Part shown: positions 11,027-47,609 of the stretch, piece after piece
How positions within the stretch are numbered: position 1 is the first letter of the stretch
How the letters are laid out: every line of letters starts with the position of its first letter
Assembly (NCBI GenBank): GCA_964510095.1
Contig: CAZEAE010000001.1
Span: 1-64,000, forward strand
Source of the DNA: an uncultured Elusimicrobia bacterium
GTDB taxonomy: Bacteria > Elusimicrobiota > Elusimicrobia > UBA1565 > UBA9628
DNA length: 64,000 bases
Reading direction: 5' to 3'
Program-made: the position numbers and the translations under genes
The notes under the pieces: generated by a model
Seen by the model: only the letters and a program-made list of their open reading frames with translations
What the model was told of the DNA's origin: nothing
Databases searched by the model: none

Positions 11027-11209
11027 GATGCTTTTATGTGAATCTCTCCTAAGTATTAAGCTGCGCCCCTCTTTTGTCAAGGCCCGCAGTCAAACCCGGT
11101 TTTTCATCGACCTCCGAAACACGCAACCCCGTTTCTGGAGCCGATGCCGCCGACCGCCTTCCCTTCCGCCTCAGGACTTGATCGCGGCCCAGGGTTACAA
11201 TACGATGAG

Positions 11210-13840
11210 ATGAGAAAAGCCTCTCGGCTGGTCCGAAAGTCCCTCCTGGGGTTGTCCTTGCTCCTCTTGCAGCCCTCGGCGTTCGCCGCCCCGGTCAAGA
11301 TCGACGAGGCAGGCCTCGGAGGAGAGATCATGTCCCTGGTGGGCGCGCGGCCCGAGCGCTTGCGCGACTACGCCGTCGCCATCGAAGACGGCCGCTTCGT
11401 CCGCCTGGACCGGCGGATGGGCAAGCCGCTTAAGCCGACCCGGTTCGCCGACCGCGCGGAGTTGGCGAAGATCGCCCGAGAGCTGCGCGACCTGGACCGC
11501 CGCTCGACGCAGAGCGACACGCGGCGCGACACGCAGATCGACCGCCAGGCCGCCGCGACGCTCGCCGCCATCCCCGCGCCCGAGGCCTGGAGGACAGGCG
11601 CGGCCCTGCTCTTCGACGGCGGCAGGCTTGAAGCCGAGACCAGCCTTCAGGGCGACTGGAGCGCGCGCGCGGATTTTGCCAACGGGCGGCTGCGGCGCTG
11701 GAATATGAAGAGCCCTTCCAGCGACACCGAAGTCGAGGTGGGAGACCTGGCCGCAGGCGGCTTGAGCCCCGCTCTAGGGTCAAGCCCGTACTGGAGCGTG
11801 ACCAAGGGGCATGCCGGCTCCGGCGACTGGCTGGATCACCAGTTCCGCGGCCAGGCCTCCTATGTGAACCTGGAGGCGCGGAATTTTCCCGAGGTCCCCG
11901 CGCCGCAATACCAGGGCGGCTTCACCAAGGAGTCCTATTACGTCTTCAGCGGCCTCGCCCAGGCCGGGCGGGCCTATCCCCTCTACGGTCCGGTGGACGC
12001 GGCCTGGAGCGCCCTCGGGGTTTTTCGCCGCACCCAAGCCTTCCCCAACGCCTCCTTCGATGAGAGCGTGGGGCTGCGGGCGAGGATAGGGCAGGATCAT
12101 TCGCTCGGGCTCTTCACCGGCGTCACCCAGGCCGTGGGCCTGCTCAGCGAGGACTGGGCCAACCGGGCCGTCTCGGGCTTGGAGCAACAGGCCGGCATGG
12201 AAAAAGCCCCGCATTCCAATATCTCCCTTTGGGGCCGGCTCCCCTGGCGCCAGGCCGACTACGCGGTGGACCTGGGGCGCCAGGACAACCCCATGACCGA
12301 GGTCTCCAGCCTCCGGGCCTCCTTGGGCGCGCCTGCCGGCGCGGGGCGGCTCTCCGTGTACGGGGCCGGGGAGACCGAGGTCGGCCGACGTATCGAGTTC
12401 GACCGCCGCCGCTCCAGCCTCGGCGCAAGCTGGGCTCCGGACGGCAGGACCCGTTGGTTCGCCGAGTACGGCCGGCAGGACTTTCGCTTTGGAGACGCCG
12501 AGGTAAAGAGCCGCCAGGTTATGGTCGGTCTTGAGCTCTCCGATAAATACCGCACCGGCGCCGGCGTCACATTAGAATCGAGCTTCGGGGGCCGTGAGAA
12601 GCTCACGGCCGGCGGCGCCGATTTCCAAGCCCTGGCCGGCCCCCTGGCCGCGGGGCTTTCCCAGCTCGAGACGGCCTTGAACCAGGCGCTGGCGGTCCTC
12701 GAGACGACGAACGAGGACCAGGCCTGGCTGTCCTTCACCGCTTACTATAACCACCTGCCGGCCGACACCCGCGCGGCCATCGAGGCGGAACTGGGGCCCG
12801 CCGACCGCGACGACTTCGACTTGCCCGCCTGGATCACGGTCATTCGCCAGGGGGCCGGCGGCCTAGCCCAAGCAAAAGCCCTGGTGGGAGACCCCGCCTT
12901 CCTCGATCGGACCTTCACGCGCTACGCCCGCGCCGCGCTGCAGAAGAGCATCGGCGAGACCGAACTGGAGGTCTTGGGCGCGCAAGTGCGCCTGACGCCC
13001 CCCGCCCTCCTCGCGCTGCTTCACGCCTACAGCCTCGGGGTCAGCCCCCTGCCGCCGGTGGGCCGCGACCTGCTCTCCGGCCCCCTAGACCAAAGGGTCC
13101 TCGACCAGATCAACAGGAAGTTCGGCAGCGCCTGTTCCGGAGATTTTAAGACCGTCTCCGCCTGCCTGATCGAGCACGTCCCCGCCGATAAAAAAGCGGC
13201 CCTCGAGGCGGCCTATGGCAAAGATTTGCCGATCGTCCTGGGCGACTCCATGGCCCTCATGGCCCAGGTCCTGCGCCGGGAGCTCAACGTCTTCCTTCTT
13301 TCCGCGATGCTGGCGGCCGAGAAGCTCGACGCGCTCAGCGTGGACCGCGGCCAGCGCCTCGGCGAGATGAACAAGGCGGCCCTGACGCGCTCCTTCGCCC
13401 TCCTAGACCAGCGCCGGCGCGCGGAAAGCGCGCCCCCGCGGGTCCTGGCGCGAGCCGAGGGCAGGCTCCGGGAAGAGCTGGCCCGGCAGGACGCCGACAT
13501 CGCCGGGCGGCTGCGCGAGCACGGCCCCAAGCTGCTGGCCAGCCTGGTCTCCCAACCCTCCTGGCCGAGCAACGTCTCGGTCAGCGTGCCCCAAGAGCAC
13601 TGGCCCGCCCTCTTGTCCCGATACGGCTCCGAGAGCCTGGCCCTCTTCCTGCGCCAGGCCGCCTCCAAGCTCGGGCAGAAGGCGGGATTCAGGATGGTTC
13701 GTTTGCGCCTTGAGTTCAAGAACGACCCCGACCTGGGCCTCTCTTTGACGCGCGGAGATATCCTGCGCCTCACGCTGCCGCCGCTGGGTCCCGGCCGCGA
13801 CCCCGCCTCCGCTCTAGAGGCGATCCTTTCGGCGCTTTGA
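11210..13840 (+). CDS. Large secreted hypothetical protein (~876 aa)
   Basis: Signal peptide MRKASRLVRKSLLGLSLLLLQPSAFAAP; the N-terminal half is Gly/Ser/aromatic-rich with alternating patterns compatible with beta strands, the C-terminal half is helical Ala/Leu-rich; no recognised domain. Confidence 0.5.
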   Translation: MRKASRLVRKSLLGLSLLLLQPSAFAAPVKIDEAGLGGEIMSLVGARPERLRDYAVAIEDGRFVRLDRRMGKPLKPTRFADRAELAKIARELRDLDRRSTQSDTRRDTQIDRQAAATLAAIPAPEAWRTGAALLFDGGRLEAETSLQGDWSARADFANGRLRRWNMKSPSSDTEVEVGDLAAGGLSPALGSSPYWSVTKGHAGSGDWLDHQFRGQASYVNLEARNFPEVPAPQYQGGFTKESYYVFSGLAQAGRAYPLYGPVDAAWSALGVFRRTQAFPNASFDESVGLRARIGQDHSLGLFTGVTQAVGLLSEDWANRAVSGLEQQAGMEKAPHSNISLWGRLPWRQADYAVDLGRQDNPMTEVSSLRASLGAPAGAGRLSVYGAGETEVGRRIEFDRRRSSLGASWAPDGRTRWFAEYGRQDFRFGDAEVKSRQVMVGLELSDKYRTGAGVTLESSFGGREKLTAGGADFQALAGPLAAGLSQLETALNQALAVLETTNEDQAWLSFTAYYNHLPADTRAAIEAELGPADRDDFDLPAWITVIRQGAGGLAQAKALVGDPAFLDRTFTRYARAALQKSIGETELEVLGAQVRLTPPALLALLHAYSLGVSPLPPVGRDLLSGPLDQRVLDQINRKFGSACSGDFKTVSACLIEHVPADKKAALEAAYGKDLPIVLGDSMALMAQVLRRELNVFLLSAMLAAEKLDALSVDRGQRLGEMNKAALTRSFALLDQRRRAESAPPRVLARAEGRLREELARQDADIAGRLREHGPKLLASLVSQPSWPSNVSVSVPQEHWPALLSRYGSESLALFLRQAASKLGQKAGFRMVRLRLEFKNDPDLGLSLTRGDILRLTLPPLGPGRDPASALEAILSAL

Positions 13841-13878: not shown

Positions 13879-14757
13879 ATGAGAAGCAATAGCTATCGGA
13901 GCCTGGCGGGAGTTCTCTGCCTGCTCGCCCATGCGAGCCTCGCTTGGGCCGGCGCGGGGTTCGGCCCGGGGCAAAACCTGGATGTCGAAGAGTTCTTGCG
14001 CGCAGCCCGGGCCGGCGACGGCCCGGCCGCGCCGCGGTCATGCCACCCCGGCCAAGCGGTCGAATGGGTGGCCATCAAAGGAGGGAAATTCGCGATGGGC
14101 GCCGACAACGGCGATAGCGATGCCAAGCCGCTCCACGAGGTCGCCATCAAAACCTTTGAGATGTCCAAGGCCTTGATTACCGTGGAGCAATACGCCGAGT
14201 GCGTAATCAAAGGCGGTTGTACGGAGCCGGGCGCCGGTGAGTACTGCAATTGGGGGAAGACGGACCGGCAGCGCCACCCGGTCAATTGCGTGGACTGGAA
14301 ACAGGCCGACCGGTACGCGAAATTCAAGGCCGCGCGGTTGCCCAGCGAGTCCGAGTGGGAGTACGCGGCGACCAGCGGGGGCAGGAACCAGAAATACCCT
14401 TGGGGCAACGAGGAGCCGAGCTGCGAGAGGGCCGTGATGCACGGCGAGGACGCCTATGGCTGCGACGGCGGGGGCACGATGCCGGTCTGCTCGAAGCCCG
14501 ACGGGAACACCGCGCAGGGTCTGTGCGACATGGCGGGAAACGTCTGGCAGTGGGTGCAGGACAAATATCAGGACTCGTATGCCGATGCGCCTGCGGACGG
14601 CAGCGCGTTTGAGGCTGCGGGCTCCTACCGGGTATGGCGTGGCGGCTCCTTCATCAACGGCGGCGCCAGGTACCTGCGGGCCAAATACCGCAACAACGTC
14701 GGCCCCGGCTACCGCGGCAGCCTCGTTGGCTTCCGCGTGGCGAGGTCGAGCCGTTGA
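13879..14757 (+). CDS. Secreted FGE-sulfatase (SUMF1/formylglycine-generating enzyme) domain protein
   Basis: Signal peptide then SUMF1 domain motifs: VTVEQYAECV, HPVNCVDWKQADRYAKFKAARLPSESEWEYAA, GNVWQWVQDKY, RVWRGGSFINGGARYLRAKYRN...GFRVARS. Confidence 0.75.
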   Translation: MRSNSYRSLAGVLCLLAHASLAWAGAGFGPGQNLDVEEFLRAARAGDGPAAPRSCHPGQAVEWVAIKGGKFAMGADNGDSDAKPLHEVAIKTFEMSKALITVEQYAECVIKGGCTEPGAGEYCNWGKTDRQRHPVNCVDWKQADRYAKFKAARLPSESEWEYAATSGGRNQKYPWGNEEPSCERAVMHGEDAYGCDGGGTMPVCSKPDGNTAQGLCDMAGNVWQWVQDKYQDSYADAPADGSAFEAAGSYRVWRGGSFINGGARYLRAKYRNNVGPGYRGSLVGFRVARSSR

Positions 14758-14821
14758 CCAGGAGGAAGGCCCGATTCGGGGCTGCCAGGAGTTCGATAAG
14801 ACTTGAAGCAAAGGAGAAACC

Positions 14822-15394
14822 ATGAAAAGCAAAAGGACGCCTTCACGACTCAAGATCGCGCTGGCCCTGACGGCGCTGTGCCTTTCCAGCCAGGCCGTCG
14901 CCGCGGAGACTTCCCTCGGCGAAGCCTTCGGCTCCGTGCAGGAAACGGTCCAAGCCGGCAAGACGCGGCTCAAGGCGACCCGCGCCGCCCCGGTGATCAT
15001 CGCCGAGCGCGGCGTATACAAGGCCTCGCTGACGACGCTTCTCGCCAAGCAGAAGTGCTCATCGCAATTCGAGCAGGTCAACGGCCGCGAGCCTCTGGCG
15101 ACGTGCGCCGTTGACGCCGGCGCGCCGGGAATGATCAAGCCCGTCGCGATCCTTCCCTTCGGGCTTCACGGCGAGTTCGACTCCGAGATCGGCGCGGGCT
15201 CAAAAGTGGGCTGCACCGGCGGCATCCGCGCAGACGCGGGCCTGGCGGGCCAGTTCCAGATATTCGTCGGCCTCAGCCCCTACAGCCTCGATTATTCGAA
15301 GGAGCAGTTCCAGCAGTGCTTCGAGTCCGTGATCTCCAAACTCCAGGCCAAGGACCGGGTCATGTACTTCGAAGCGGTTCAGACGGCGAAATGA
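14822..15394 (+). CDS. Secreted Cys-containing hypothetical protein, paralog family A (member 1)
   Basis: Signal peptide + conserved leader MKSKRTPSRLKIALALTALCLSSQAVAAETSLGEAFGSVQETVQAGKTRL shares ~85% nt identity with the 5' end of the 17336 gene; AAGGAGA RBS. Confidence 0.5.
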   Translation: MKSKRTPSRLKIALALTALCLSSQAVAAETSLGEAFGSVQETVQAGKTRLKATRAAPVIIAERGVYKASLTTLLAKQKCSSQFEQVNGREPLATCAVDAGAPGMIKPVAILPFGLHGEFDSEIGAGSKVGCTGGIRADAGLAGQFQIFVGLSPYSLDYSKEQFQQCFESVISKLQAKDRVMYFEAVQTAK

Positions 15395-17226
15395 GACGGC
15401 AGGCGATCCCGCTCGCGGCCTTGGCCGCGCTGCTGGCGGCGCTTGTCCTGCCCGTCGGCGCGGCGGACGGCCCGGCCGCCTCCGAGGTCGACCTGAGCGC
15501 GCGCTACCTGCCGGGCGGGTCATGGTTCGACGTGGGCGACCAGGGGCTGGCGATACGCCTGACAGGCCGCCCTGCCGTCAACGGGATCGTGGATTTCCGC
15601 GGCCAAGCGGGGGGCGCCTTGGCCTTCGAGGCCCGTCCGCTCTCTTCGGCGCAGCCGCCCTACGGCTACTCCTTGATCGGAAGCGCGGTCTCCGCGCGCG
15701 TCACGCGCTTCGGCGCGGGCTTCCTTCTAGAAGGCCAAGCGGGCGGCAGACCCCTGGCGCTGACCTTGGAGCGCCTGCGTGATCAAGACTACCAGGTCGT
15801 CGGCCGCGACGGAACGAAGCTCAAGGCCTGGATCACCCCCTCCCTGGCCCGCCTGCAAGGACGCTTCGAGCCGGAGAAAACATCGCGAGAGGGGCTGGCC
15901 GTCCTGGGCGCGGCGCTGGCCCTGATGTTCTCGGAGCAACCCGCGACGCCGCCTCGCGCCGCCTCCGACGCCGGCGCAAGCGAAGCAGCTCACGAACCCG
16001 CCGCTGCTTTGAATGAGAGCGTCTCCGCCGAGGGATTGGACTTGGACGCCCTTTTCGACGGCGTGAAGGACTTCCGCGGAGCCGTCCATGTCCACACCTC
16101 CCTCTCGCGCGACAGCCACGCCTCGCCGGAGGATCTGGTCAAAGCCGCCAATGAGATCGGCCTGGACTTCGTGATGACCTCCGATCACCGGGGGCAGGAC
16201 GTCTACGCGAAGTCGCTGCGCGGCATGCAAGGCGGCACTCTCTTCATACCCGGGATGGAAGTCATCCAAGGAGGCTCCGGGCTCTTCGGGAACTGCTGGC
16301 CGCCCTCGGTCTGCAACTCGGCTCTCTACTTGAACATGAGCGATTCGACCACGGTCACCAATCCAGATCTTGAGCGGCTGCTGACGGGCCCGCGCGGCCC
16401 GGAAGAACTTGTGATCGTGGCCCATCCCTTGGGTTTCAAAGATTGGGAGCACGGAAACATCGACGGGATGGAGATCTACGATCTGGCCGATGAGTTCATG
16501 CCGCCCTGCGTCTGGGGGACCTTGCGCAGGATCCTCGCGCTGGTCCTGCGGGCCGTCGGCGTCCGGTTGTTCGACCAGCCCACGGAGGACATCCTGATCG
16601 ACCGGCTGCAAAGGCCCGACGCGCACCTCAAGAAGTGGGACGAATTGCTCTCCCAGGGCCGGCACGTCGTGGGCGTCGGGGCTCCCGACGCCCATCAGAA
16701 CATGAGGATCTTCGGGGTGCAGCTGGACCGCTACGTCTTGACCCTGCGCTTTCCTTCCGTGCACATCCTGGCGCGCGAGCTGACCGCGCAGGCGCTGGCG
16801 GCCGCTCTCAAGAACGGCCGCAGCTACACCTCCTTCGACCTGCTCGCCGATCCCTCGGGGTTCAGATTCTCCGCCGCGGACGGCCAATCGTCGTATACAC
16901 AGGGAGACAGCATGCGCTTGGCCCGGGATCGGCCGGTGGTCTTCACCGCGATGTCGCCCCGCGAAGGCAGGATCAGGCTATTCAAGAACGGAGCGCTCGT
17001 CCAGGAGGCGTCCGGGGCACAGTTGGGCTTTACGACGCACGACCCCGGGGCGTATCGGGTCGAAGTCGAGCTGAACCTCAAAGGAGAATGGAAGCCTTGG
17101 ATCTTCTCGAACCCCATCTACTTGGAGCCAAGCCCCGAGACTCCAGAGCAGAAGGAATCGTCGCGGGACAACAACGCTTCGGCTGGCAGTCAAACCGGGC
17201 TTTCCAACGGCGGACCAAATGGATAG
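15391..17226 (+). CDS. Secreted PHP-domain (polymerase/histidinol phosphatase-like) metal-dependent phosphoesterase
   Basis: Start MRRQAIPLAALAALLAALVLPVGAADG overlaps the upstream stop (ATGA); PHP motif AVHVHTSLSRDSHASPEDLVKAANEIGLDFVMTSDHR. Confidence 0.6.
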   Translation: MRRQAIPLAALAALLAALVLPVGAADGPAASEVDLSARYLPGGSWFDVGDQGLAIRLTGRPAVNGIVDFRGQAGGALAFEARPLSSAQPPYGYSLIGSAVSARVTRFGAGFLLEGQAGGRPLALTLERLRDQDYQVVGRDGTKLKAWITPSLARLQGRFEPEKTSREGLAVLGAALALMFSEQPATPPRAASDAGASEAAHEPAAALNESVSAEGLDLDALFDGVKDFRGAVHVHTSLSRDSHASPEDLVKAANEIGLDFVMTSDHRGQDVYAKSLRGMQGGTLFIPGMEVIQGGSGLFGNCWPPSVCNSALYLNMSDSTTVTNPDLERLLTGPRGPEELVIVAHPLGFKDWEHGNIDGMEIYDLADEFMPPCVWGTLRRILALVLRAVGVRLFDQPTEDILIDRLQRPDAHLKKWDELLSQGRHVVGVGAPDAHQNMRIFGVQLDRYVLTLRFPSVHILARELTAQALAAALKNGRSYTSFDLLADPSGFRFSAADGQSSYTQGDSMRLARDRPVVFTAMSPREGRIRLFKNGALVQEASGAQLGFTTHDPGAYRVEVELNLKGEWKPWIFSNPIYLEPSPETPEQKESSRDNNASAGSQTGLSNGGPNG

Positions 17227-17335
17227 GGCCGTTTCTGGGGCCAATGCCAGGCTCGGCTTGCCCTTGCGCCTCAGGCCGAGCGCCCGACTTGGGGCTACAA
17301 TGAGTTCAAGAGAACTTGCCGGAAAAGGAGAAGCC

Positions 17336-18043
17336 ATGAAAAACAAGATGACGACTTCACGCCTCAAGATCGCGCTGGCCCTGACGGCGCTGTGCGCTTC
17401 CAGCTGGGCCGCCGCCGCGGAGACATCCCTCAGCGAAGCCTTCATCTCCCTGCAGGCGACGGTCCAAGCCGGCAGGGCGCGGCTCGACCAGGCCGCGGAA
17501 AGTTCGAAGCCCGCCGATATGGATGAGGACGACGTCGTCGTCACCCCTGGAATTGGCCATTGGGTCATGGACAAAGAAGACCGGGTCGGCCAAATCATCG
17601 AGATTTATCCAAACGGAGCCGCGCGTTATCAGGTCGGGAGCGACGTCTATATCTCGAACTATCTTTCCCTGGAGCAGGAACATGGAGACGGCGTGTGGAC
17701 CGGGGACACGGTGATCGATACCGACAATGAGATCGGAACGGTCATGCGCATCTTCTGCACGCGCAACCCGCGGGCTTTGCGCGATCCGGCCTGCCGCATC
17801 CAGTACAAGGTGAGAAACAGCTTCTATATCGCCAAAGGCGGCCTCAAGCGCGAGGTCCAGGAATATGTCAAGTCGGACTTCCCCCACCTCGGCCAGAAAG
17901 TTTCGCGAGGCTCCATGATCATCACCTCGGAGAACAATACGTTAACGGTGGATCAGCTCTTCTCGGACGGCCGCGTCCGCTTTCGCGTCGGCGCAAAATC
18001 AGAGATCCTGACCAGAGACCGCTACACCGCGGTCCAGCGTTGA
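17336..18043 (+). CDS. Secreted hypothetical protein, paralog family A (member 2), with three ~50-aa SH3-like repeats
   Basis: Leader MKNKMTTSRLKIALALTALCASSWAAAAETSLSEAFISLQATVQAGRARL matches family A; AAGGAGA RBS at 17324-17330; lower GC than surroundings. Confidence 0.5.
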   Translation: MKNKMTTSRLKIALALTALCASSWAAAAETSLSEAFISLQATVQAGRARLDQAAESSKPADMDEDDVVVTPGIGHWVMDKEDRVGQIIEIYPNGAARYQVGSDVYISNYLSLEQEHGDGVWTGDTVIDTDNEIGTVMRIFCTRNPRALRDPACRIQYKVRNSFYIAKGGLKREVQEYVKSDFPHLGQKVSRGSMIITSENNTLTVDQLFSDGRVRFRVGAKSEILTRDRYTAVQR

Positions 18044-18062
18044 ACGAAATGAAGGGGGGAAT

Positions 18063-18752
18063 ATGAAAAAATCGATATCCATCCGCCGCGCGGGGTCTTC
18101 CGTCGCCGTGATCCTAGGCGCCCTGGGGATTCTTGCCGCGACGAGCTCTGCTCAAAGCCCGGTCGAATGGAACGCCGGCGACCCGGTGATCCAGCTTCAG
18201 CAGCGCCTGGCCGAACAGCCCGCCGCGGCGACTCCACCGGCCAGGCCCGTGTCCATCAAACCCGAGGAGAAGGAGGTTAGCGGGATCGCCGACCCCGCTT
18301 TGACCGGAGACTACCGGCTCAAGGAGATCCGCGCCCAGGGCTTCCCTGAAAAACTGCGTTCGCATTACTGCCCCGACCGCCTCAGGGTCGTGCTCGACGA
18401 CCCTTCCCGCCGCGTCACCGTCTTCGGGAAGATGGACGACGAAGAGGGACCCGACGGCGAGTATCCTGGATACCGCCTCCTCAAGACTTTCTCCCCCTCT
18501 CGCCTGGTCAAGGAACCGGACGAGGTCGACCGCGGAGCCGTGACCGAAACGGCATTCGACGGCAAAGAGGTGCGCACCACCCATAACGGCTTCATGCTGC
18601 TGATCTTCAGCGTAGTGCATGAATACACCGGCCTGCGCCTGACCAGCCAGGACGTCTTGGTCTGGAAGCATTCCGAGACCGTCGTGCCGGCCGGCGCACT
18701 GCTCTCCAACGATGAAGACTACACCTGTCACTATGACAGAGCCGCCCGCTGA
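18063..18752 (+). CDS. Secreted hypothetical protein, paralog family B (member 1)
   Basis: MKKSISIRRAGSSVAVILGALGILAATSSAQSPVEWNAGDPVIQLQQRLAEQ shared with the 22001 gene (~88% nt identity over ~70 nt); RBS AAGGGGGG. Confidence 0.5.
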   Translation: MKKSISIRRAGSSVAVILGALGILAATSSAQSPVEWNAGDPVIQLQQRLAEQPAAATPPARPVSIKPEEKEVSGIADPALTGDYRLKEIRAQGFPEKLRSHYCPDRLRVVLDDPSRRVTVFGKMDDEEGPDGEYPGYRLLKTFSPSRLVKEPDEVDRGAVTETAFDGKEVRTTHNGFMLLIFSVVHEYTGLRLTSQDVLVWKHSETVVPAGALLSNDEDYTCHYDRAAR

Positions 18753-18767
18753 CGAAACACCTCGAGG

Positions 18768-20348
18768 TTGAACATGAAACGCTTGATGAACCCTGTCGCG
18801 CCGCTCCTGTCGCTCTCGTTGATTTTGACGGCCCCAGGCTTGGGCTGCTATGAAGCCGCGGCCGCCAGCTTCAAAGCCTTGCGAGTGGCGCCGCCGTCGA
18901 GCGCCATGAGCTTCAATCCGGGAGCTCTCGGCCGCTTCCCTGTCTCTTATCAGGGCGCCGGTTTGACCGCGCCGGGGTTTTTGACGCCGCTGCCCGTGAT
19001 CTCCGCGTTGACGCAGCCTGCCAGCATCCCCCAATTGAGCCCTTCGGCGCCTTCGGCGCTTGAGGGCGCGGCAGTCCCCGCGGCAATCGCGGCCACAGTC
19101 GAGGCGGGCCCCTCTTGGCAGCAGCGGCTTTCGGCCCTTGGTGAAGAGGTCAAGGGAATCGTTTCCTCCCGAGATGTCGGCGACCAAGCCGCGGTCCTGC
19201 GCCGCATATTCGAAGCCGGCCTAAGGCTTTCAGTCGCGCCCGAGACTCCCGAGGGCGCGCCAAAAGCCGCCTCCATTGGCTCTCCGCGGACGCGAAGGAT
19301 GCCCGAGGTCCTGGAGATATCCGAGTCCCGACGCCTCGACACGCTCGAAGGCCTATACGTCCGGACTCAGCCCCAAGGAGCGGTGGCCCCGCGCTCGTCG
19401 CCCCTCAAGAATAGGACCGCAGGAAAAATATCCCCGGAGCTCGATAGGATGCTGCGGCCCGAGAACGTCTATGACGTGACCGTCAGCTTGATAGCTCATC
19501 CTTCCGTGACCGAGGAAGACCAGCTGGTCTACTATTTGTCCGAGCTCGAAGGAGCCTCCTACCGGCACGACCACAGGAGCGGAAAGATATCCGTCCAGGG
19601 GATCAGCGGCCGGGATATCCGCGTCATCGCGGGCTTTCCCGCCGTGAGCCGCATCGCGGGGACATCCAAGGCGCCGACAGACGCCGCCACAAAAGGCCAG
19701 GGCGACAATCCGGAGGAAAAGACGCCCGTCATCTTCGTCGACAAGAAGCTCCGCCCGGACGTGGCCCTGCGCGTCCTGGAAGGCGCCGAACGGAACGACT
19801 TGGCGGCGCTCGACGGCAAAATCAATATCACCGTCGAAATCCGATCCAACCCGCGCAACCCCATGATCCTGATGAAGGGCGCCAACGGCTTTAGGACGAT
19901 GTTCTATCTGCACGAGGCCGGGGAGATGATCCGCGAACTGCAGTTTCGTTGGCACAAGCCTTCGACCTGGCTCCCGCGCGATGCCGACCCCGACAAGATG
20001 GACGCCGCCGAGCAGATGGACCTGGTGATCGCTTACGCGAAGGAAGCGTTCAAAGGGATCGTTTCCCGGGAAGGCAAGCCGAAAACGCCTTCAGAAAACT
20101 CCGGAATCTCCGGACTCTCGACAAAGAACGTCGTGCTGACGCTGACCGGACTCCTTAGCATAACCGGTCTCTTGGGCACATTGGGAATATTGACCGGGTT
20201 TTTCGCCTCCCTCCTGCCCCAAGTCCCTATTGAAGTCGCAGATTACATCTATGCCGTCAGCGGCAAGGCTCTCATAGGAGTGGCGGCCGGGACGGTTACT
20301 CTGGCCCTAGCGGGCATAGCCGCCTACCTTCTCTGGGCAAGAGAGTAA
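18768..20348 (+). CDS. Exported hypothetical protein, paralog family C (member 1), C-terminal double TM anchor
   Basis: First ~150 aa (signal + LSLSLILTAPGLGCYEAAAASF...PPSSAMSFNPG.LGR.PVSYQGAGLTAPG...SWQQRLS.LG.E.K.IVSSRD.GDQAA) conserved with the 20354 gene; unique C-terminal domain ending in two hydrophobic helices. Confidence 0.5.
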   Translation: MNMKRLMNPVAPLLSLSLILTAPGLGCYEAAAASFKALRVAPPSSAMSFNPGALGRFPVSYQGAGLTAPGFLTPLPVISALTQPASIPQLSPSAPSALEGAAVPAAIAATVEAGPSWQQRLSALGEEVKGIVSSRDVGDQAAVLRRIFEAGLRLSVAPETPEGAPKAASIGSPRTRRMPEVLEISESRRLDTLEGLYVRTQPQGAVAPRSSPLKNRTAGKISPELDRMLRPENVYDVTVSLIAHPSVTEEDQLVYYLSELEGASYRHDHRSGKISVQGISGRDIRVIAGFPAVSRIAGTSKAPTDAATKGQGDNPEEKTPVIFVDKKLRPDVALRVLEGAERNDLAALDGKINITVEIRSNPRNPMILMKGANGFRTMFYLHEAGEMIRELQFRWHKPSTWLPRDADPDKMDAAEQMDLVIAYAKEAFKGIVSREGKPKTPSENSGISGLSTKNVVLTLTGLLSITGLLGTLGILTGFFASLLPQVPIEVADYIYAVSGKALIGVAAGTVTLALAGIAAYLLWARE

Positions 20349-20353
20349 AAACC

Positions 20354-21811
20354 ATGAGACTCCTAATGAAGCCCATCGCGCCGCTCCTGTCGCTCTCCTT
20401 GATCCTGACGGCTCCGGGCTTGAGCTGCTTTGAAGCGGCGGCTGCCAGTTTCAATATCGTGAGGGTGACGCCGCCGTCCAGCGCCATGAGCTTCAATCCG
20501 GGATCGCTCGGACGCCTCCCTGTCTCTTACCAGGGCGCAGGTTTGACCGCGCCGGGGCTTTTGCCCCCGCCGTCCTTAACCTCCGCGCTAACGCTGCCTA
20601 GAGGCTATCCCCAATCAAGCGCCACGGCGCTCCCGACGCTTGCGGGCGCGGCCGCCCCCGCGGCGGTCCCCGCCGCAGTCGAGCCCGGAGCCTCCTGGCA
20701 ACAGCGGCTCTCCTCTCTTGGAGACGAGATCAAGGCAATCGTTTCCTCCCGGGATATCGGCGACCAAGCCGCGGGCCTGGGCCGCATCTTCGAAGCCGAC
20801 CGAATACTTTCAGCCACGACGCCAGGAGAAGGGGGCTTTGTGCCCGCAACCCGCAAGGCAGCAAGCGGCCTGAAGACGCCCAAGGCCGCCGCTGGCGGCG
20901 CAGGCCAGATCTCCCCGGAGGGAATGCGCGAGCACCGCTTCGAAGCCCTCATGGACGAGCGCGCCGAACGATATCGATCCGCTCACGCCCGGCTCGAATT
21001 CCTAAGCGGACACGCGAACGGCCTGAGCTCCGCGCTGGTGTCGCACATGGATTGGATGCTGCTTCCGATAGTCGGCTTCACGCTGGCGTGGAACATGCCC
21101 GTCTTGGCGGCCGTCGCGCTCCTGACGTTAGCCGCGACCGCAGCCCGATCCTACGCGCTGTACAAGGTCGCCGACCGCATCGGAGGCTTGTACGAGTCCT
21201 GGGGCCAGGGGCTGCAATCACTGCTTCGCTTGGAGCCTTCCTTGGATGGATCGGAGAAGGCACGCCTGGCCCAGGGAATGTACGACCTGCTGAGCTTCCC
21301 GCGCCGCGTCAGGGTTTTCGGAAGATACTACCCCATAAGCGTCGACGAGAACTGGCATCGCTGGGCCTCGATATTCCGGACTCATCTCGCCTCATTCCTA
21401 GACGACAGAAGCAGGCGAGAGTTGGTCCGATTGAGTTTTGAGCGCTCTCAGTACGCTCTCGGAAGGATCAGCCAACGCGACACCACGGACGCGAACGCCT
21501 ATTTTTCAGTTTTGATGCCTCTGCGGCTGCATACCCTGCTTAACGAACGGCAAAAAAAAGACTCTATCGAGTCCATGCTCGAGTTCTATGAGAGGGCGCT
21601 CTGGGTCCAGGGCTTCACCTACCCGATGGATGGCCAGGGCTTCGACGAGGTCGATCAAATGCTGCGCGACCGGCAGATACCGCGCGAATCAATCCGAAGC
21701 TTTTACCCCAGGTTCTACGCCTTGCTCGACCGGCAGCCATTCTTGGAGAGCCGGCCGTTACTGCTTAAGGTATTGAACCGCATGCGCGAGAACTTTAAGG
21801 AAAAGATATGA
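20354..21811 (+). CDS. Exported hypothetical protein, paralog family C (member 2), with internal TM hairpin and unique C-terminal domain
   Basis: N-terminal 150 aa paralogous to the 18768 gene; its own C-terminal ~230-aa domain is unrelated to member 1. Confidence 0.5.
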   Translation: MRLLMKPIAPLLSLSLILTAPGLSCFEAAAASFNIVRVTPPSSAMSFNPGSLGRLPVSYQGAGLTAPGLLPPPSLTSALTLPRGYPQSSATALPTLAGAAAPAAVPAAVEPGASWQQRLSSLGDEIKAIVSSRDIGDQAAGLGRIFEADRILSATTPGEGGFVPATRKAASGLKTPKAAAGGAGQISPEGMREHRFEALMDERAERYRSAHARLEFLSGHANGLSSALVSHMDWMLLPIVGFTLAWNMPVLAAVALLTLAATAARSYALYKVADRIGGLYESWGQGLQSLLRLEPSLDGSEKARLAQGMYDLLSFPRRVRVFGRYYPISVDENWHRWASIFRTHLASFLDDRSRRELVRLSFERSQYALGRISQRDTTDANAYFSVLMPLRLHTLLNERQKKDSIESMLEFYERALWVQGFTYPMDGQGFDEVDQMLRDRQIPRESIRSFYPRFYALLDRQPFLESRPLLLKVLNRMRENFKEKI

Positions 21812-21981
21812 AGAAGACGATCTTGATGCGCCGCGGCGGGGTCGGCCCAGACAAGAAATCGGGCCTGTCAAACCCTGTTTTTCAGCGACCGTCGGAATGC
21901 ATAACGGCGCTTCTGGAGCCAATGCCGCGCGCCGCCTTACCCGCAGCCCCAGGCCGAGAACCCGACATGGGATTACACTGA
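21808..21981 (+). pseudogene. Remnant 5' end of a family-B gene (MKKTILMRRGG...) fused to the conserved upstream element
   Basis: ATG overlapping the stop of the 20354 gene (ATGA); first ~35 nt match the family-B starts (atgaaaaagatgatcttgacgcgccgcg / atgaaaaaatcgatatccatccgccgcg), then diverges into non-coding-like sequence; 57 codons. Confidence 0.3.
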
Positions 21982-22000
21982 GGATATGAAAGGAGAAGAT

Positions 22001-22807
22001 ATGAAAAAGATGATCTTGACGCGCCGCGCCGGGCTTCCCGTTGCGCTGATACTCTGTACGTTGGGGACCATGGCCGCGACGGGCTCGGCCCAGAGCCCGG
22101 TCGACTGGAATTCCGGCGACCCCGTGCTCCAGCTTCATCAGCGCCTGGCCGAACAGACGCCGGCCGCCGTCTCACCCACCGGCGCGGCGGTGCTGGAAAC
22201 GGGACGCCCCGTGCTTGATCTCGTGAACAAAGTCGCCGGGTTGTATATGGGAGACAAGAACCCCGACACCGCCGTTCTAGAACCCGACCGCCGCAAGAAT
22301 CAACTGAGAGTCTCCTCGTGGCTTCAGAAGAAGTCCGAGATCCGAGCGGAAATCCTTGAGCCCGTTGGAATCAAAAAAGGAGACGCGATTTTAGTTTATG
22401 ATAAAATCGCGCCTTTATCCTCCAAGATCCTGGGGGTTTATGAAGAAGGTTACCTCTATTTCGAGGGACGAAGCCGCTGGGTCGCCACTTCTGATTACTC
22501 AGACACCACGGCTCCGACCTATGTCATCAAGAAAGCTGAGGACATCTTCCTCGAAGTCGGCGAGATCGATGGCATGCGGGCGGGGCAGGCCGTCTGCTTG
22601 AAGGAAGACCATGACTCCGGTGGAGACAAATTCAAGGCAGGAAAAAAAGGAAAGATCGAGCATGTTTTCTCGAACGGCGTCGCTGAAGCCTCCTTCAGCC
22701 CCCCGCTGAATATCGTTCGATTGCCCTTGGCTTTTTTGGGGATGAAAGAGAGTCTTTTTTTGAAGATCGCGGATTTGAAAGACTGTTCAACCAGGAGGAA
22801 AAAATGA
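22001..22807 (+). CDS. Secreted hypothetical protein, paralog family B (member 2), SH3-like repeats
   Basis: AAGGAG RBS 6 nt before ATG 22001 (the ORF track start at 21986 includes the RBS); leader MKKMILTRRAGLPVALILCTLGTMAATGSAQSPVDWNSGDPVLQLHQRLAEQ; the body is ~50% GC. Confidence 0.5.
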   Translation: MKKMILTRRAGLPVALILCTLGTMAATGSAQSPVDWNSGDPVLQLHQRLAEQTPAAVSPTGAAVLETGRPVLDLVNKVAGLYMGDKNPDTAVLEPDRRKNQLRVSSWLQKKSEIRAEILEPVGIKKGDAILVYDKIAPLSSKILGVYEEGYLYFEGRSRWVATSDYSDTTAPTYVIKKAEDIFLEVGEIDGMRAGQAVCLKEDHDSGGDKFKAGKKGKIEHVFSNGVAEASFSPPLNIVRLPLAFLGMKESLFLKIADLKDCSTRRKK

Positions 22808-23436
22808 AACGCCAGGAACATAGCCCCCTATTGTCCGCCGGTCTGAGTCTGCTGCTCCTCTCCGCGGCGGGCAAACCGCTCAGCGCGGCAAGCCTCGCGC
22901 CGGCCCCGCTGGAAGCCTCCCTGGAGGCCGCGTTCGCCCAGGCGCGCGTCGCCGTCGCCGACGCCGCGATCAAGGATTTCTCGGACGCCGACGCCCTGGC
23001 TTCGGCCGCCGGCGTCTGGGTCATGCGCCTGCGCGCCGACGCCAATGCCCTTGCCGCCCGGGCCCAAGCGCGTCCGGCCGACCCGGCCCTGGGCCGGGAG
23101 CTTCAGGCCCTGGAAGACCACACGCAGGACCTGGATTCCGATTTAGCCGGGCTCGACCGCGACCTGAGGGGGCTCATCGCGCGGGCGCCGGCGCTCATTT
23201 CCATCAAAGACCGCGTCTCCTTCCTTCCGGACATGATCTTCGCCGCGCGTAGCAGCCTCTGGCTCGCCTGGCAGGAGGCGTTCCCCCGAGCCGAGGTCTT
23301 CCGCCGGTCGGATCTGGCGACCTCCTTCGCGCGCTTCCAACGCGCGCTCGAGCACGCCGAGGCCGCCGCCCAGAAATGCGAGGAGTCCGCCCTAGAGCTC
23401 AAACACGCGGTGGACGCGGCGTCCCGCGGGCGCTGA
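22804..23436 (+). CDS. Secreted Ala-rich helical hypothetical protein
   Basis: Signal peptide LLSAGLSLLLLSAAGKPLSAASLA; ATGA overlap with the upstream gene; coiled-coil-like composition. Confidence 0.4.
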   Translation: MKRQEHSPLLSAGLSLLLLSAAGKPLSAASLAPAPLEASLEAAFAQARVAVADAAIKDFSDADALASAAGVWVMRLRADANALAARAQARPADPALGRELQALEDHTQDLDSDLAGLDRDLRGLIARAPALISIKDRVSFLPDMIFAARSSLWLAWQEAFPRAEVFRRSDLATSFARFQRALEHAEAAAQKCEESALELKHAVDAASRGR

Positions 23437-23443
23437 CCCCATC

Positions 23444-23800
23444 ATGCGCGCTCTCATCGTAGACGACGACGTAAACGTCGCCAAGATCCTGCGGCGGCAT
23501 TTGACCGCGTGGGGTTGGGAGACCGACGTAAGCACCACCGTGGCCGACGCTATCATGCTCTTCAAGGAAGGCCGGTATGACCTAGCGCTTTGCGACGTGG
23601 ACTTGCCGGACGGCGACGGTATATCCTTGGCCAGTGTCTTTCTAGGGGCTTTGCCGTCGCTGTCGGTCATCATCGCTTCCGGCGATCCCAAGAATCTGGA
23701 ACGCGCCCAAGAAGCCGGTTTCGCGCGCTGCCTCGAGAAGCCTTTTTCTCTGGAGAATCTCAAAGCCTTGCTCGAAGAAGCCCTGAAGGGCCGGCTGTAA
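23444..23800 (+). CDS. Stand-alone response-regulator receiver (CheY-like) protein
   Basis: MRALIVDDDVNVAKILRRHL...LALCDVDLPDGDGISLA with the phospho-acceptor Asp context (LCDVDLPDGDG); 118 aa, no output domain. Confidence 0.8.
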   Translation: MRALIVDDDVNVAKILRRHLTAWGWETDVSTTVADAIMLFKEGRYDLALCDVDLPDGDGISLASVFLGALPSLSVIIASGDPKNLERAQEAGFARCLEKPFSLENLKALLEEALKGRL

Positions 23801-23828: not shown

Positions 23829-24698
23829 GTGACCAATAAGCCGATGGCCTTCGCCGCCGTCCTCACCCAGTTCAGAAAGGAGGCCGGCTACTCCTCCGCC
23901 CGCGACTTTTATAGGGCCGTCGGAGCCCAGGGCACCTTCGGCTGCACCTACGCGCAATACCTCAACATCGAGGCGGGCCGCTCGACGCCGAAGCCCACCC
24001 TGGTCCGCAAGATCATGGCCCTGCTGGAACTCTTCCCCCGCGACGCCAAGGGCCGCGAGTTCATCACCGCCTATTTCAGGGCGCTGCTCAAGGATGAAGA
24101 TTTTTTCGAACTGGCCCTTCAGGCCCTCTCGGGGGGGCCTTCGGCGCAGGGACAGGACGACGCGCCATTGAGCCAGGCCCTGAAGACAAGCGTCGCGCTA
24201 AAACAGGTCTGGCTGACCGACAAGCAAGTCGCCGTGATCGAGGGCGACCGGACCGCCTACTGGTGTTTCGAGGTTTTTTGCAATGACGGCCGGGACTGGG
24301 GAACGCTGGAGCTTTCCCACCTGCTCGGCCACAATGTGAAGGCGATCTCGGCGGCTCTTAAAAAACTACAAAAAGCCGCTCTGATCGTGGCGGCCCCGGA
24401 TGGGCGCTACCGTTGCTTTGCCAAGGACAAGATCCTCGCTTTCCCCCGGAAGGACATGTTCCTCCCGGAGAACATCGACCGCGCGCGCGGCTATCTGGAG
24501 GAGATGGCGCAAAGCCGCGGCCGCTTCGAGCTGTACCAAAACCTCAGCCTGCGCGCTTCCTCGAAACGTCTCAAGCAATACTACCCCCACCTGGCCCAAA
24601 GCGTCGCCGGCGCCAATATCTATTCGAGCCCGGAAAAGGGCGACGACACGGGCTTCTACGTGATCGAGACCATCGTCCGCAGGCTGTTCGACTTCTAA
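23829..24698 (+). CDS. HTH-domain protein (XRE-like N-terminus; resembles the TIGR02147-type paralogous family)
   Basis: N-terminal FRKEAGYSSARDFYRAVGAQGTFGCTYAQYLNIEAGRSTPKPTLVRKIMALL fits an HTH-XRE fold; the remaining ~200 aa have no recognised domain. Confidence 0.5.
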   Translation: MTNKPMAFAAVLTQFRKEAGYSSARDFYRAVGAQGTFGCTYAQYLNIEAGRSTPKPTLVRKIMALLELFPRDAKGREFITAYFRALLKDEDFFELALQALSGGPSAQGQDDAPLSQALKTSVALKQVWLTDKQVAVIEGDRTAYWCFEVFCNDGRDWGTLELSHLLGHNVKAISAALKKLQKAALIVAAPDGRYRCFAKDKILAFPRKDMFLPENIDRARGYLEEMAQSRGRFELYQNLSLRASSKRLKQYYPHLAQSVAGANIYSSPEKGDDTGFYVIETIVRRLFDF

Positions 24699-24699
24699 G

Positions 24700-25329
24700 A
24701 TGAAGCGCTGGCGAGAAAGTCTGGCGATGATCAGCCTTCTTATCCTGGCGATGGATGCATCCGCGGCCGGCGTCCCGGTGCGCGGCCCTCAGCCGGTCGT
24801 GCAGGCCGAACTGAGCTTCAGCCGCACCTGCGCCGACGGCACGCCCCGCTATGCGCTGGCCGATGTCTCGAAAGACCTCGGCCCCTCGCTCGATATCACC
24901 ACGGAAAAGAGCAAGATCGGCTATCTCTACGTCCTGGAGGCCGGCTACCGCCCCATCATGGACGCCGACCAACCCGGAGCGCCCATCTTCCTCAGCGACG
25001 CTTCGACCGGCAACCGCCTCCCTTTCGCCGTCCTGGACCCCAAGGACATCCCCCCTTGCAGGAGCGGGGGCGGCCGGGAATACGCGTCGCCGGTGCGCAT
25101 CCGGCTGGAGCCTTCGGTCCGAGCGGAGCTTGAGATCAAGCCTCGGACGGGGATCTTCCGGCCGGCCTGCTACAAGAACGTGACCACGGGCGCCTACAAG
25201 CTCGACCTCTGGAACATACTGACCCTCAAGCTGCCGGATCGCAAGATCGAGGTCAAAAGCGCCGACTCCGAATCCTTCCAGGATGAAGAAGAATGCCGTA
25301 GATTCTACGAGGCGATGAAAAGTCCTTAG
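24700..25329 (+). CDS. Secreted hypothetical protein
   Basis: Signal peptide MISLLILAMDASAAG; no recognised domain. Confidence 0.4.
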   Translation: MKRWRESLAMISLLILAMDASAAGVPVRGPQPVVQAELSFSRTCADGTPRYALADVSKDLGPSLDITTEKSKIGYLYVLEAGYRPIMDADQPGAPIFLSDASTGNRLPFAVLDPKDIPPCRSGGGREYASPVRIRLEPSVRAELEIKPRTGIFRPACYKNVTTGAYKLDLWNILTLKLPDRKIEVKSADSESFQDEEECRRFYEAMKSP

Positions 25330-25368: not shown

Positions 25369-26319
25369 ATGCCGGTTCGATCCAGGCTTCTATGCGTCAT
25401 GTCTCTCTGTTCCATGGCTTTTCTCCTTGGGACACCGCGGATCTTCGCCGAGGGGACATCCATCCGACTCTGCGAGGAGGCCGGGGAGGGCAAAGACTGC
25501 CTCGGAAACCTCAAGAAGCCCGCCACGCCCTCCTCGAACCCCGCTCCCTGGCCGGAGAGCGTCGGCCGGAAGACTTGTCCCGCTGACTGGCTCCAGTCAC
25601 GCAAGGGCGGTTGCCTGACCCAGGTCACCACCGTCGATGGACAAAGAGGGTCGGCCTATGTCCATCCGGGAGGCTGGCTGGTCGATGCGCGGTGCTTCAG
25701 CGATAAGCGCTTCAAAGCCTCGGAGCTGCTGGCGGCGCTCGAACTGGTGCAGCGGAAGATCAGCCCGACGGCAGGCTTGGACAAAGGAGGCTGCCTCTCC
25801 AAGTTCAACCCGGAGTGGGGCGCGGAATTGGTCAATGCCTCCTGGGAGAAGGGCATCTACGTCGACTGCCCGCCGCTCGACCCCTCGGACTCCGAACCCT
25901 CCTGCGCCGCGCACGTCACCCAGGGAATCCGCGCTTCGATAGGCAGCCGCGGCTATCGCCGCGAGACCGAACTCTCCTTGCTGTCGCTCGAAAACGTCGC
26001 GGGCTGCATGGGCAGCGGGACCACGGGGCTTGCGGGCGTCCTGTTCCACGAGTTCCTGCACGCCGCCGGAGCCGACAACTATCCCACGGAGAAGCATAAC
26101 ACGGCCTGGCGGCTCCAAGACTACGTCTTCGTGTCCGACCGGGTGTATGGGACCGAGGCGCTCTGCTTCTTCGGCGTGGACGACGCGCGCAAGGACTTGG
26201 TCAACGTCCTGCAGTGCCGGCAGGCGGCCTCCTACCGCGCCATCGCCCCCCGCTTCGACCTCTGCCGGGGCTTCAGCACCTCTTTCACCGACATGCCCGC
26301 CAAATTCATCAAGCACTGA
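25369..26319 (+). CDS. Secreted Cys-rich protein with HExxH motif (putative zinc metallopeptidase)
   Basis: Signal peptide LLCVMSLCSMAFLLGTPRIFAEG; HEFLH at ~residue 225 (VLFHEFLHAAGADNYPTEKHNTAW); 14 Cys. Confidence 0.45.
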   Translation: MPVRSRLLCVMSLCSMAFLLGTPRIFAEGTSIRLCEEAGEGKDCLGNLKKPATPSSNPAPWPESVGRKTCPADWLQSRKGGCLTQVTTVDGQRGSAYVHPGGWLVDARCFSDKRFKASELLAALELVQRKISPTAGLDKGGCLSKFNPEWGAELVNASWEKGIYVDCPPLDPSDSEPSCAAHVTQGIRASIGSRGYRRETELSLLSLENVAGCMGSGTTGLAGVLFHEFLHAAGADNYPTEKHNTAWRLQDYVFVSDRVYGTEALCFFGVDDARKDLVNVLQCRQAASYRAIAPRFDLCRGFSTSFTDMPAKFIKH

Positions 26320-47562: not shown

Positions 47563-47609
47563 CTGAAAAGTGGAACAAAATGAGGGGTTCAATCGTATAT
47601 AGATTAGGT

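Follow-up and report, generated by a model that had tools for sequence, protein, structure and literature searches.

In Borrelia burgdorferi, genes of the UHB/Erp-Elp group are described as combining a shared upstream promoter/operator and near-identical leader peptides with unrelated mature proteins (PMC12018966), and recombination is presented as the accepted origin of the UHB family in the accounts that cite Marconi 1996 and Akins 1999 (PMC12018966, PMC10016077). A comparable process, terminal reassortment, is described for type III effectors (Stavrinides, Ma & Guttman 2006, as cited in PMC5895054 and PMC6460904). Here we describe a gene cluster located in a 64,000-nucleotide stretch of DNA from an uncultured Elusimicrobia bacterium (assembly GCA_964510095.1, contig CAZEAE010000001.1, positions 1 to 64,000, analyzed as a whole and hereafter called the window), in which three pairs of genes for putative exported proteins, A1 and A2, B1 and B2, and C1 and C2, share their N-terminal portions, or leaders, followed by dissimilar bodies. 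The explanation that we favor, with a probability of about 0.7, is that promoter and Sec-type leader modules have undergone terminal reassortment within a regulon of envelope or exported proteins that is specific to the lineage, and that one gene has been split by fission. With no lipobox, no prophage plasmid and no type III secretion system (T3SS) in the window, the cluster would be analogous to, but not a member of, the Borrelia UHB/Elp or type III effector systems, and it adds, from an unexplored phylum, a clear new case of evolution by a process already known.

The three leader-sharing pairs announced in the original prediction are confirmed, with a likeness far beyond chance. In family A, the DNA at 14810-14971 and 17324-17485 is 88% identical and the proteins are 76% identical over amino acids 1-50 (E=1.8e-19), with the likeness reaching ~60 nt 5' of the ATG. 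In family B, 18052-18229 and 21990-22167 are 75% identical (68% over 59 amino acids in the proteins, E=4e-22), and the motif that follows the signal peptide is better conserved than the hydrophobic core. In family C, 18773-19072 and 20353-20652 are 80% identical (63% over 183 amino acids, E=2.6e-65); for C1, the ATG at 18774 is a more likely start than the TTG at 18768. The likeness ends abruptly, after ~50 (A), 59 (B) and ~170 (C) codons, and identity in 30-nt windows drops to the background level (~35-45%) at ~14965-14995, ~18230-18260 and ~19220-19235, respectively, within a single 30-nt step in each case; protein comparison found no significant similarity over the rest of each pair. Apart from a 44-nt leader-B stub at 21797-21840, a tblastn search of the 64 kb window detected no further leader copies.

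All six genes are on the forward strand. A1 (14822..15394) consists of a copy of leader A (14822-14992, amino acids 1-57) and a body with four cysteines and no known domain; A2 (17336..18043) consists of the native leader A (17336-17503) followed by three tandem copies of a five-stranded small beta-barrel that is SH3-like (Tudor/KOW-type) at the level of fold. B1 (18063..18752) has leader B at 18063-18230 (signal peptide plus the motif SPVEWNAGDPVIQLQQRLAEQ) and B2 (22001..22807) has it at 22001-22180, ahead of an orphan body (22181-22807); C1 and C2 occupy 18774..20348 and 20354..21811. The SH3-like repeats foreseen from the sequence thus hold for A2; a homology of the A2 and B2 bodies, both considered SH3-like, was rejected because hhalign pairs the leaders only, with a probability of 1%. 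The barrels of A2 are presumably of the binding type and, apart from a metallohydrolase-like part of a neighboring gene (X611), would be the sole functional clue among the bodies. The AF2 model of B1, built from an alignment of four sequences, is unusable (mean pLDDT 46.9).

The six proteins are annotated in databases as hypothetical proteins of an Elusimicrobiota metagenome-assembled genome (MAG) from Hainich groundwater, on contigs of 331, 257 and 106 kb. Two samples, assembled independently, contain the same gene arrangement, which is therefore not an assembly artifact.

The comparison with the related contigs (L003, L004/L008, L007, L010, L011/L012, L013/L014 and L015) was made for each module in turn. 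Wherever a related genome has an A2 ortholog, leader A is its native N-terminus, and the A1 body, which has leader A in the window, is preceded in L003 and L013 by a different leader, F. This leader makes up the first ~53 amino acids (13879-14037, forward strand, as delimited by comparison with relatives) of an FGE-sulfatase-domain protein of the window, which carries the same leader in L015; among the related contigs, leader F was found on L003_213, L013_5072, L010_2582 and L015_1028. A further body, K, follows leader F in L010 and leader B in P0041. The B1 body is joined to leader B in four genomes (the window, P0042, P0044/L013 and P0043/L015), and in L010 (L010_6646) it goes with leader G and then a GGYP-repeat domain, a domain that stands alone behind leader G in L003. 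Two exported proteins encoded downstream in the window, F200 and D210, take part as well: the F200 body follows a B-type signal peptide in L003, there without the B motif, and signal peptides of other kinds in the window, L010 and L007, and the D210 body has a signal peptide of its own in the window, whereas in L010_4045 the signal peptide is A-like and the B motif comes after it. The chimera of leader F and the A1 body occurs in two independent samples (L003 and L013), and the nucleotide identity between A1 of the window and its L013 counterpart is 0.36 before amino acid ~50 and 0.69-0.96 beyond it. Orthologous bodies are 65-90% identical between relatives, in a loosely conserved neighborhood, and the gene content of the cluster varies from one relative to another. 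Since the same body is found under different leaders and the same leader on different bodies, the combinations, as read from the related sequences, show genuine reassortment. Leader-sharing genes sought in related genomes were accordingly found, with the leaders reassorted among bodies; the bodies, which might have turned out to be housekeeping proteins in conserved synteny, do have orthologs in loose synteny but are not housekeeping proteins.

These data also bear on a simpler account, in which the pairs are ordinary tandem paralogs whose C-terminal parts diverged past recognition while their N-termini were conserved, with no recombination involved. C1 and C2, which are adjacent, clearly derive from duplication, and signal peptides and N-terminal segments can indeed be selectively conserved; the A pair, however, is not adjacent, and the A1, B1, K, F200 and D210 bodies all have orthologs (42-90% identity) under a different leader elsewhere. 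Furthermore, the leaders differ by only 0.1-0.7 synonymous substitutions per site (dS) and yet the bodies cannot be aligned, and the B2 body differs from its own leader in base composition. Altogether, divergence without recombination appears highly improbable.

Orphan termini, such as are left behind by the terminal reassortment of type III effectors, were seen three times. The leader-B stub of the window (21797..21840, forward strand, detected as a DNA repeat) consists of a ribosome-binding site (RBS), an ATG at 21808 and the codons for MKKTILMRRGG, after which the likeness ends; it is 89% identical to the start of B2 and overlaps the stop codon of C2 in an ATGA. At this position L003 has an intact leader-B gene and L007 a 13-codon stub, with the same ATGA overlap after the C gene, and in L004 a 43-amino-acid open reading frame (ORF) consists of leader A alone. 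As in type III effectors, an existing 5' terminus, with a promoter and a secretion signal, would have been fused to unrelated coding sequence, and the chimeras differ between close relatives. Unlike in those systems, the secretion signal here appears to be a classical Sec-type signal peptide, there is neither a T3SS in the window nor an hrp-box, and the cargoes would be envelope or extracellular proteins rather than host-targeted effectors.

The three shared modules differ in apparent age and in selection. Between A1 and A2, leader A has a dS of 0.11 and a ratio of nonsynonymous to synonymous substitutions (dN/dS) of ~1.4, that is, no purifying selection; together with the ~60 nt of upstream likeness, these values agree with a tract that was copied or converted recently. 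At its 3' end (KTRLKATRAA), the A1 copy is closer to the A2 orthologs of other genomes than to A2 of the window, so that the copied unit comprises ~56 codons and extends to the linker before the first barrel. Leader B (B1 versus B2; dS 0.70, dN/dS 0.27) and the N-terminal module of family C (C1 versus C2; dS 0.42, dN/dS 0.38) are retained modules under purifying selection. In the B motif, dN/dS is 0.2-0.5 across five genes with four different bodies. A nucleotide-level constraint on this motif, considered on account of the low dS in some pairs, was rejected: the orthologous bodies have a dS that is just as low and mosaic (0.1-1.0), and at the DNA level the leaders do not stand out by their conservation. 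The dS values of the window against its relatives range over the same 0.1-1.0 in a mosaic, with 100% nucleotide identity over some stretches; the lineages are very close to one another and still recombine. The A2 orthologs of the window (17336-18043) and L013 (5662-6321), for example, are 100% identical over codons ~145-170 and 71-75% identical on either side, a pattern that suggests ongoing homologous recombination between closely related populations.

The body of B2 has a GC content of 0.52 and a GC content at third codon positions (GC3) of 0.63, compared to a GC3 of 0.83 in its own leader and 0.75-0.90 in the neighboring genes, and it has no homolog in protein, phage, plasmid and PDB sequence searches. 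B2 is thus a chimera of a native leader and a foreign or young body. Within this body, 22384-22411 is an AT-rich near-perfect palindrome (CGCGATTTTAGTTTATGATAAAATCGCG) that is scored as a terminator-like hairpin on both strands; such a palindrome is unexpected in coding DNA when the genome has 65% GC, and it agrees with the body being foreign or young.

The sharing is not limited to coding sequence: the DNA 5' of A2 and that 5' of B2 are homologous and belong to an upstream element of ~110 nt (hereafter UE), which we located with nhmmer models (E from 1e-28 to 5e-4). The window has four copies, all within the cluster and on the forward strand: before the gene for a large exported protein, up898 (11117..11215; E=2e-14 with a model made from four other copies), before A1 (14759..14823; a partial copy of which the alignment covers the 3' half only, E=5e-4), before A2 (17230..17338) and before B2 (21891..22003). 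The UE also lies directly 5' of cluster genes in eight related loci (L003, L004, L008, L010, L011 with two copies, L012, L013 with two copies, and L015). A TACAAT box is conserved 30-45 nt before the RBS and lies at ~17271 in the copy before A2 and at ~21933 in that before B2. In the up898 copy, this box is at 11196-11201 and thus ends 8 nt before the ATG at 11210, with no Shine-Dalgarno sequence, which suggests an mRNA that is leaderless or nearly so, unlike those of the other three units. The UE as a structured RNA was rejected, as no Rfam match was obtained, RNAalifold gave -8 kcal/mol without covariation, and a hand-specified helix (GGCCG-N11-CGGCC) scored no better than shuffles; the lack of both an Rfam match and covariation favors a promoter/operator that works as DNA. 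The placement of the copies looks like a division into four co-regulated units, namely up898-FGE, A1-X611, A2-B1-C1-C2 and B2-D210-RR-..., and the families of a weak XRE-type HTH protein (E289) and a receiver-domain protein go with the cluster in relatives, often adjoining a UE; both proteins are candidate regulators. The deposited MAG assembly is broken within A2, where a contig of 17.8 kb ends and that of 106 kb starts; probably, the repeated leader or upstream element confounds short-read assembly at this point.

The UE, whose promoter role is predicted, and leaders A, B and F would thus play the same roles as the upstream region and leader peptides of the Borrelia UHB/Erp-Elp genes. There is, however, no sequence relationship between the two systems, and they differ in several respects: the leaders described here have signals of the type cleaved by signal peptidase I (AXA), as opposed to the lipobox lipoprotein leaders of Borrelia; the cluster is chromosomal and lies among housekeeping genes rather than on cp32 prophage plasmids; the exchange is reticulate and involves several types of leader; and the host is a groundwater bacterium, free-living or of unknown lifestyle, with no known host immune pressure.

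For the C pair, the picture of a shared leader on unrelated bodies, which stands for families A and B with their sharp junctions and reassortment in relatives, does not apply: C1 and C2 are halves of one multidomain membrane protein. According to the modules, which were defined from the search matches, C1 reads N (amino acids 1-170), L, M (215-318), P (319-425) and T (428-524, the C-terminal transmembrane region), and C2 comprises a second N module (1-183) and an H domain (199-485), which is a transmembrane segment with a ~220-amino-acid helical domain. The membrane-anchored domains recognized in the original prediction correspond to membrane segments at amino acids 452-522 of C1 and 235-264 of C2. 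In L013, a single gene of 799 amino acids has the order N-T-M-P-H; the order is N-T-M-H in L003 and N'-M-H in L004 and L011. C2 aligns with the N'-M-H proteins from end to end, except for a ~90-amino-acid gap that deletes M, and retains the last residues of that module (GFVPATRKAAS, compared to GFPAV(S/N)RIAG); another candidate for a scar of the deletion, the ISPE of C2, was rejected in favor of this aligned retained edge. Because C2 corresponds to the N'-M-H proteins minus M, and the domains of the single gene are all accounted for by C1 and C2 combined, the pair results from gene fission, that is, duplication with complementary domain loss, the N module being kept by each half. As in gene fission generally, the two genes partition the domains of single-gene orthologs (N-T-M-P-H, N-M-H); unlike there, both halves keep a 170-amino-acid N-terminal export/anchor module, and it is for this reason that C1 and C2 looked like a leader family.

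The P domain of C1 (amino acids 319-425, 19728-20048 in the window; NPRNP...FYLHEAGE...WLP) matches the C-terminal ~80-120 amino acids of two proteins from other metagenomes, the M3-like oligopeptidase P0029 (832 amino acids, HELGH motif) and the metallopeptidase-like P0034 (662 amino acids). HExxH motifs are present in a further exported protein of the cluster, G306, and in the L004_2752 family, which, along with the occurrence of the P domain on peptidases, hints at a protease-related theme.

As to the nature of the leaders, all six proteins start with a basic stretch, which precedes a hydrophobic core and a site of the small-x-small form (AVA/AAA in A, SSA/GSA in B and AAA in C, with AWA as the predicted cleavage site of leader F), as read by eye and from hydropathy; on this heuristic reading, the claim of signal peptides on all six proteins, all encoded on one strand, is upheld. 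By their appearance, the leaders are ordinary signal peptides of the Sec type to which segments specific to the lineage are attached. The cleavage region of leaders A, B and F contains no cysteine and hence no lipobox; GLGC/GLSC is present in the C leader, and the L004 and L011 orthologs have no cysteine there. For leader B, a Tat (twin-arginine) signal peptide, in which S/T-R-R-x-F-L-K precedes a weakly hydrophobic core, was also considered: leader B carries I/T-R-R-A-G-(S/L), in which the RR of the Tat motif is present and its F-L-K is absent, and L010_4045 and P0044 have no RR.

The segments that follow the signal peptides are SPV(D/E)WNxGDPVxQLxxRLxEQ and then a Pro/Ala linker in B, and ETSLxEAFxSxQxTVQAGxxRL in A. 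These conserved segments might be dedicated sorting or tethering tags, for surface anchoring, for docking to a partner (the C or up898 proteins, for example) or for a second secretion step, that are exchanged as units since any cargo needs them. Such a role would agree with the purifying selection on the B motif in front of four different bodies, with its conservation beyond that of the hydrophobic core, with its persistence in L010_4045 behind an A-type signal peptide and with the coincidence of the junctions with module boundaries, and the A, G, D210 and L011_1245 proteins resemble one another in an E-x-x-L-x-E-A-F/W helix after the signal peptide. However, each leader type is found in 1-2 proteins per genome and in fewer than 10 proteins among 5.8 billion clusters, too few for a general pathway; leader A is not under purifying selection; the F200-type protein of L003 has the B signal peptide but lacks the motif; AF2 models the A helix with low confidence; and no transporter, sortase-like enzyme or known sorting domain is encoded near the cluster. 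A sorting role of these segments is therefore rather unlikely, and the dedicated leader module of the original prediction gives way to what look like Sec-type signal peptides confined to a few proteins.

The acidic amphipathic pattern E-x-x-L-x-E-A-F/W-x-x-x-Q recurs right after unrelated signal peptides in A1/A2, D210, L003_4296, L010_6646 and L011_1245 (ETSLSEAFxSxQ, EASLEAAFAQ, EDALNEAWTQ and HEALSRAFDAA are examples) and could be due to compositional chance. The more specific idea that the B motif with its Pro/Ala linker and the helix of the A/G/D210 type represent a new class of N-terminal address or tether tags of Elusimicrobiota envelope proteins is unlikely; if it were true, the cluster would form a surface system of the 'plug-and-play' kind, co-regulated and complete in itself, with cargo domains swapped behind tags.

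The constant 5' ends followed by unrelated 3' parts had led the original prediction to propose a polymorphic or diversifying system, that is, toxin, effector or surface-variation cassettes in which a constant trafficking leader precedes interchangeable, conflict-driven C-terminal payloads. Polymorphic toxin systems (Rhs, CDI, MafB, LXG) do share with the cluster the constant N-terminal and variable C-terminal parts and the displaced orphan fragments, which the stubs superficially resemble, and the compositionally foreign B2 body and the differences in gene content among relatives would also be compatible with such a system. In the Mycoplasma Vlp/Vsp families, as here, clustered genes share a conserved 5' region and signal peptide but differ widely in their mature regions; those families have lipoprotein signals, tandem-repeat bodies and a phase switch (a homopolymer tract or a site-specific invertase), none of which was found in the cluster. 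Neither the six proteins nor their separated bodies match any Pfam or NCBIfam family even at E<=10, in line with the earlier statement that no known trafficking domain is recognizable, and searches of PADLOC and PDB sequences with the six proteins gave no match; thus, there is no toxin, immunity, Rhs/LXG/MafB/PT-TG or secretion-system domain among them. Nor does the ORF listing contain a pattern of small downstream immunity-type ORFs. Among the window neighbors, there is no T3SS, T5/T6/T7 or other dedicated secretion apparatus and no recombinase or invertase near the cluster, and Tandem Repeats Finder (TRF) reported four trivial repeats of 2-3 copies only, with no meaningful inverted repeats that could act as switches. 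Each copy has its own start codon and RBS, which leaves no silent cassettes; the bodies, at 65-90% identity among relatives, are conserved rather than hypervariable; and the flanks of the cluster are occupied by housekeeping genes, namely polyphosphate kinase (ppk), histidine utilization (hut), PEPCK, thiolase and MgtE. A toxin or surface-variation system can thus be given very little credence, and this part of the original prediction is not sustained.

The distribution of these genes is narrow. Homologs of the six proteins were found in a few closely related metagenomic genomes only: a full HMMER pass with C1 over 1.84 billion cluster representatives gave 13 matches, and in word-indexed protein searches A2 matched six clusters, each a full-length ortholog, and the matches of B2 were limited to the leader. 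A pattern scan of 185,579 species genomes with the H-domain alignment detected one related genome, GCA_030696455.1, and the corresponding metagenome scan one locus; the genome-collection scan with the alignment of the C N module found nothing, its back-translated patterns being too specific. The cluster is a ~15 kb chromosomal array of co-oriented genes for exported and membrane-anchored proteins that is confined to one narrow clade of groundwater Elusimicrobiota. By the ORF listing and repeat search, the forward-strand run of genes at ~11.1-26.3 kb contains all three pairs, and nearly all of its proteins start with a signal-peptide-like segment on the same heuristic reading.

Under the terminal reassortment scenario, a small set of 5' modules would have been duplicated and recombined onto different mature domains, both within the genome and between close relatives. 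Each module would comprise an RBS, a Sec-type signal peptide and a post-signal segment of 25-140 amino acids, sometimes preceded by the ~110-nt UE. Leader A would be native to the A2 family, from which a recent copy or conversion tract (~60 nt upstream plus 56 codons) was placed on the A1 body; leader B would be native to the B1 family, with a second copy, with its own UE, placed on the compositionally foreign orphan body of B2 and a truncated third copy left as the stub after C2. C1 and C2 would go back to a multidomain membrane-protein gene that was duplicated in tandem and whose two copies then lost complementary sets of domains, both keeping the N module. The modules would make any fused body co-regulated and Sec-exported, and after cleavage by signal peptidase I the mature protein would retain, at its N-terminus, a conserved helix or tag of short length and a linker rich in Pro/Ala.

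Several points weigh against this scenario or parts of it. With few and fragmentary relatives, the direction of most events cannot be rooted (the A1 body, for instance, could originally have been on leader A or on leader F), and gene conversion is not distinguished from fresh duplication. The T module follows P in C1 and precedes M in L013 and L003, an order of modules that needs more than one simple event. The purifying selection on the B and C modules, along with the B motif kept behind a different signal peptide in L010_4045, suggests that the post-signal segments have a specific function. The recognition of the leaders as putative Sec-type signal peptides depends on the visual and hydropathy-based reading described above, and the UE has no recognizable -35 box and was not detected by a scan with the sigma-70 consensus. 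Finally, the word-indexed searches overlooked known leader-only matches (A1 with the A2 query and B1 with the B2 query), so the distribution of the leaders may be under-sampled.

The remaining genes of the cluster are all on the forward strand. At its start, up898 (11210..13840) encodes a large exported protein of 876 amino acids without a known domain, which is kept at 33-36% identity in every related locus that reaches that far, followed by the exported FGE-sulfatase-domain protein (13879..14757; Pfam PF03781, E=2e-49). X611 (15391..17226), also exported, has a C-terminal part that is a PHP / CehA-McbA-like metallohydrolase and is itself a fusion: its N-terminal ~190 amino acids stand alone in relatives as an exported protein of ~210 amino acids (69-71% identity to L004 2092-2724 and L011 583-1206), and the metallohydrolase part is absent there. 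In L015, an X611-like gene comes straight after that of the FGE protein and, given this order, A1 appears to have been inserted between the two in the window. B2 is followed by D210 (22804..23436), an exported coiled-coil-like protein, the receiver-domain protein (23444-23800), E289 (23829-24698), F200 (24727-25329; exported) and G306 (25399-26319), which is exported and has an HEFLH motif by sequence reading.

Outside the cluster, a giant ORF of more than 5185 amino acids occupies 48437-63994 on the reverse strand and runs past the end of the window; the 2999 amino acids translated from 48437-57436 contain no Pfam domain at E<=1e-5. Very large genes have been reported to be frequent in Elusimicrobiota and other PVC phyla (bioRxiv 10.1101/2023.11.21.568195). 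Adjoining this gene, and ~21 kb from the cluster, is an IS200-like Y1 transposase (47580-48401, forward strand; PF01797, E=1.8e-11), for which a link to the leader rearrangements is not evident.

The locus reveals neither a new secretion system nor a new toxin family. Instead, it shows how exported proteins can arise and rearrange, with ready promoter/signal-peptide modules copied onto other coding sequence, even onto a foreign orphan ORF, and with a membrane-protein gene split and its export module doubled. This process has hitherto been known mainly from pathogens, through the UHB/Elp genes of Borrelia and the terminal reassortment of type III effectors; in the present case, it acts on putative Sec substrates in an uncultured phylum that is not pathogenic, where very close relatives have exchanged at least four types of leader in a reticulate manner. 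The cluster also defines a small putative regulon of wholly uncharacterized protein families with a conserved cis-element, which offers a handle for metatranscriptomic or heterologous study.

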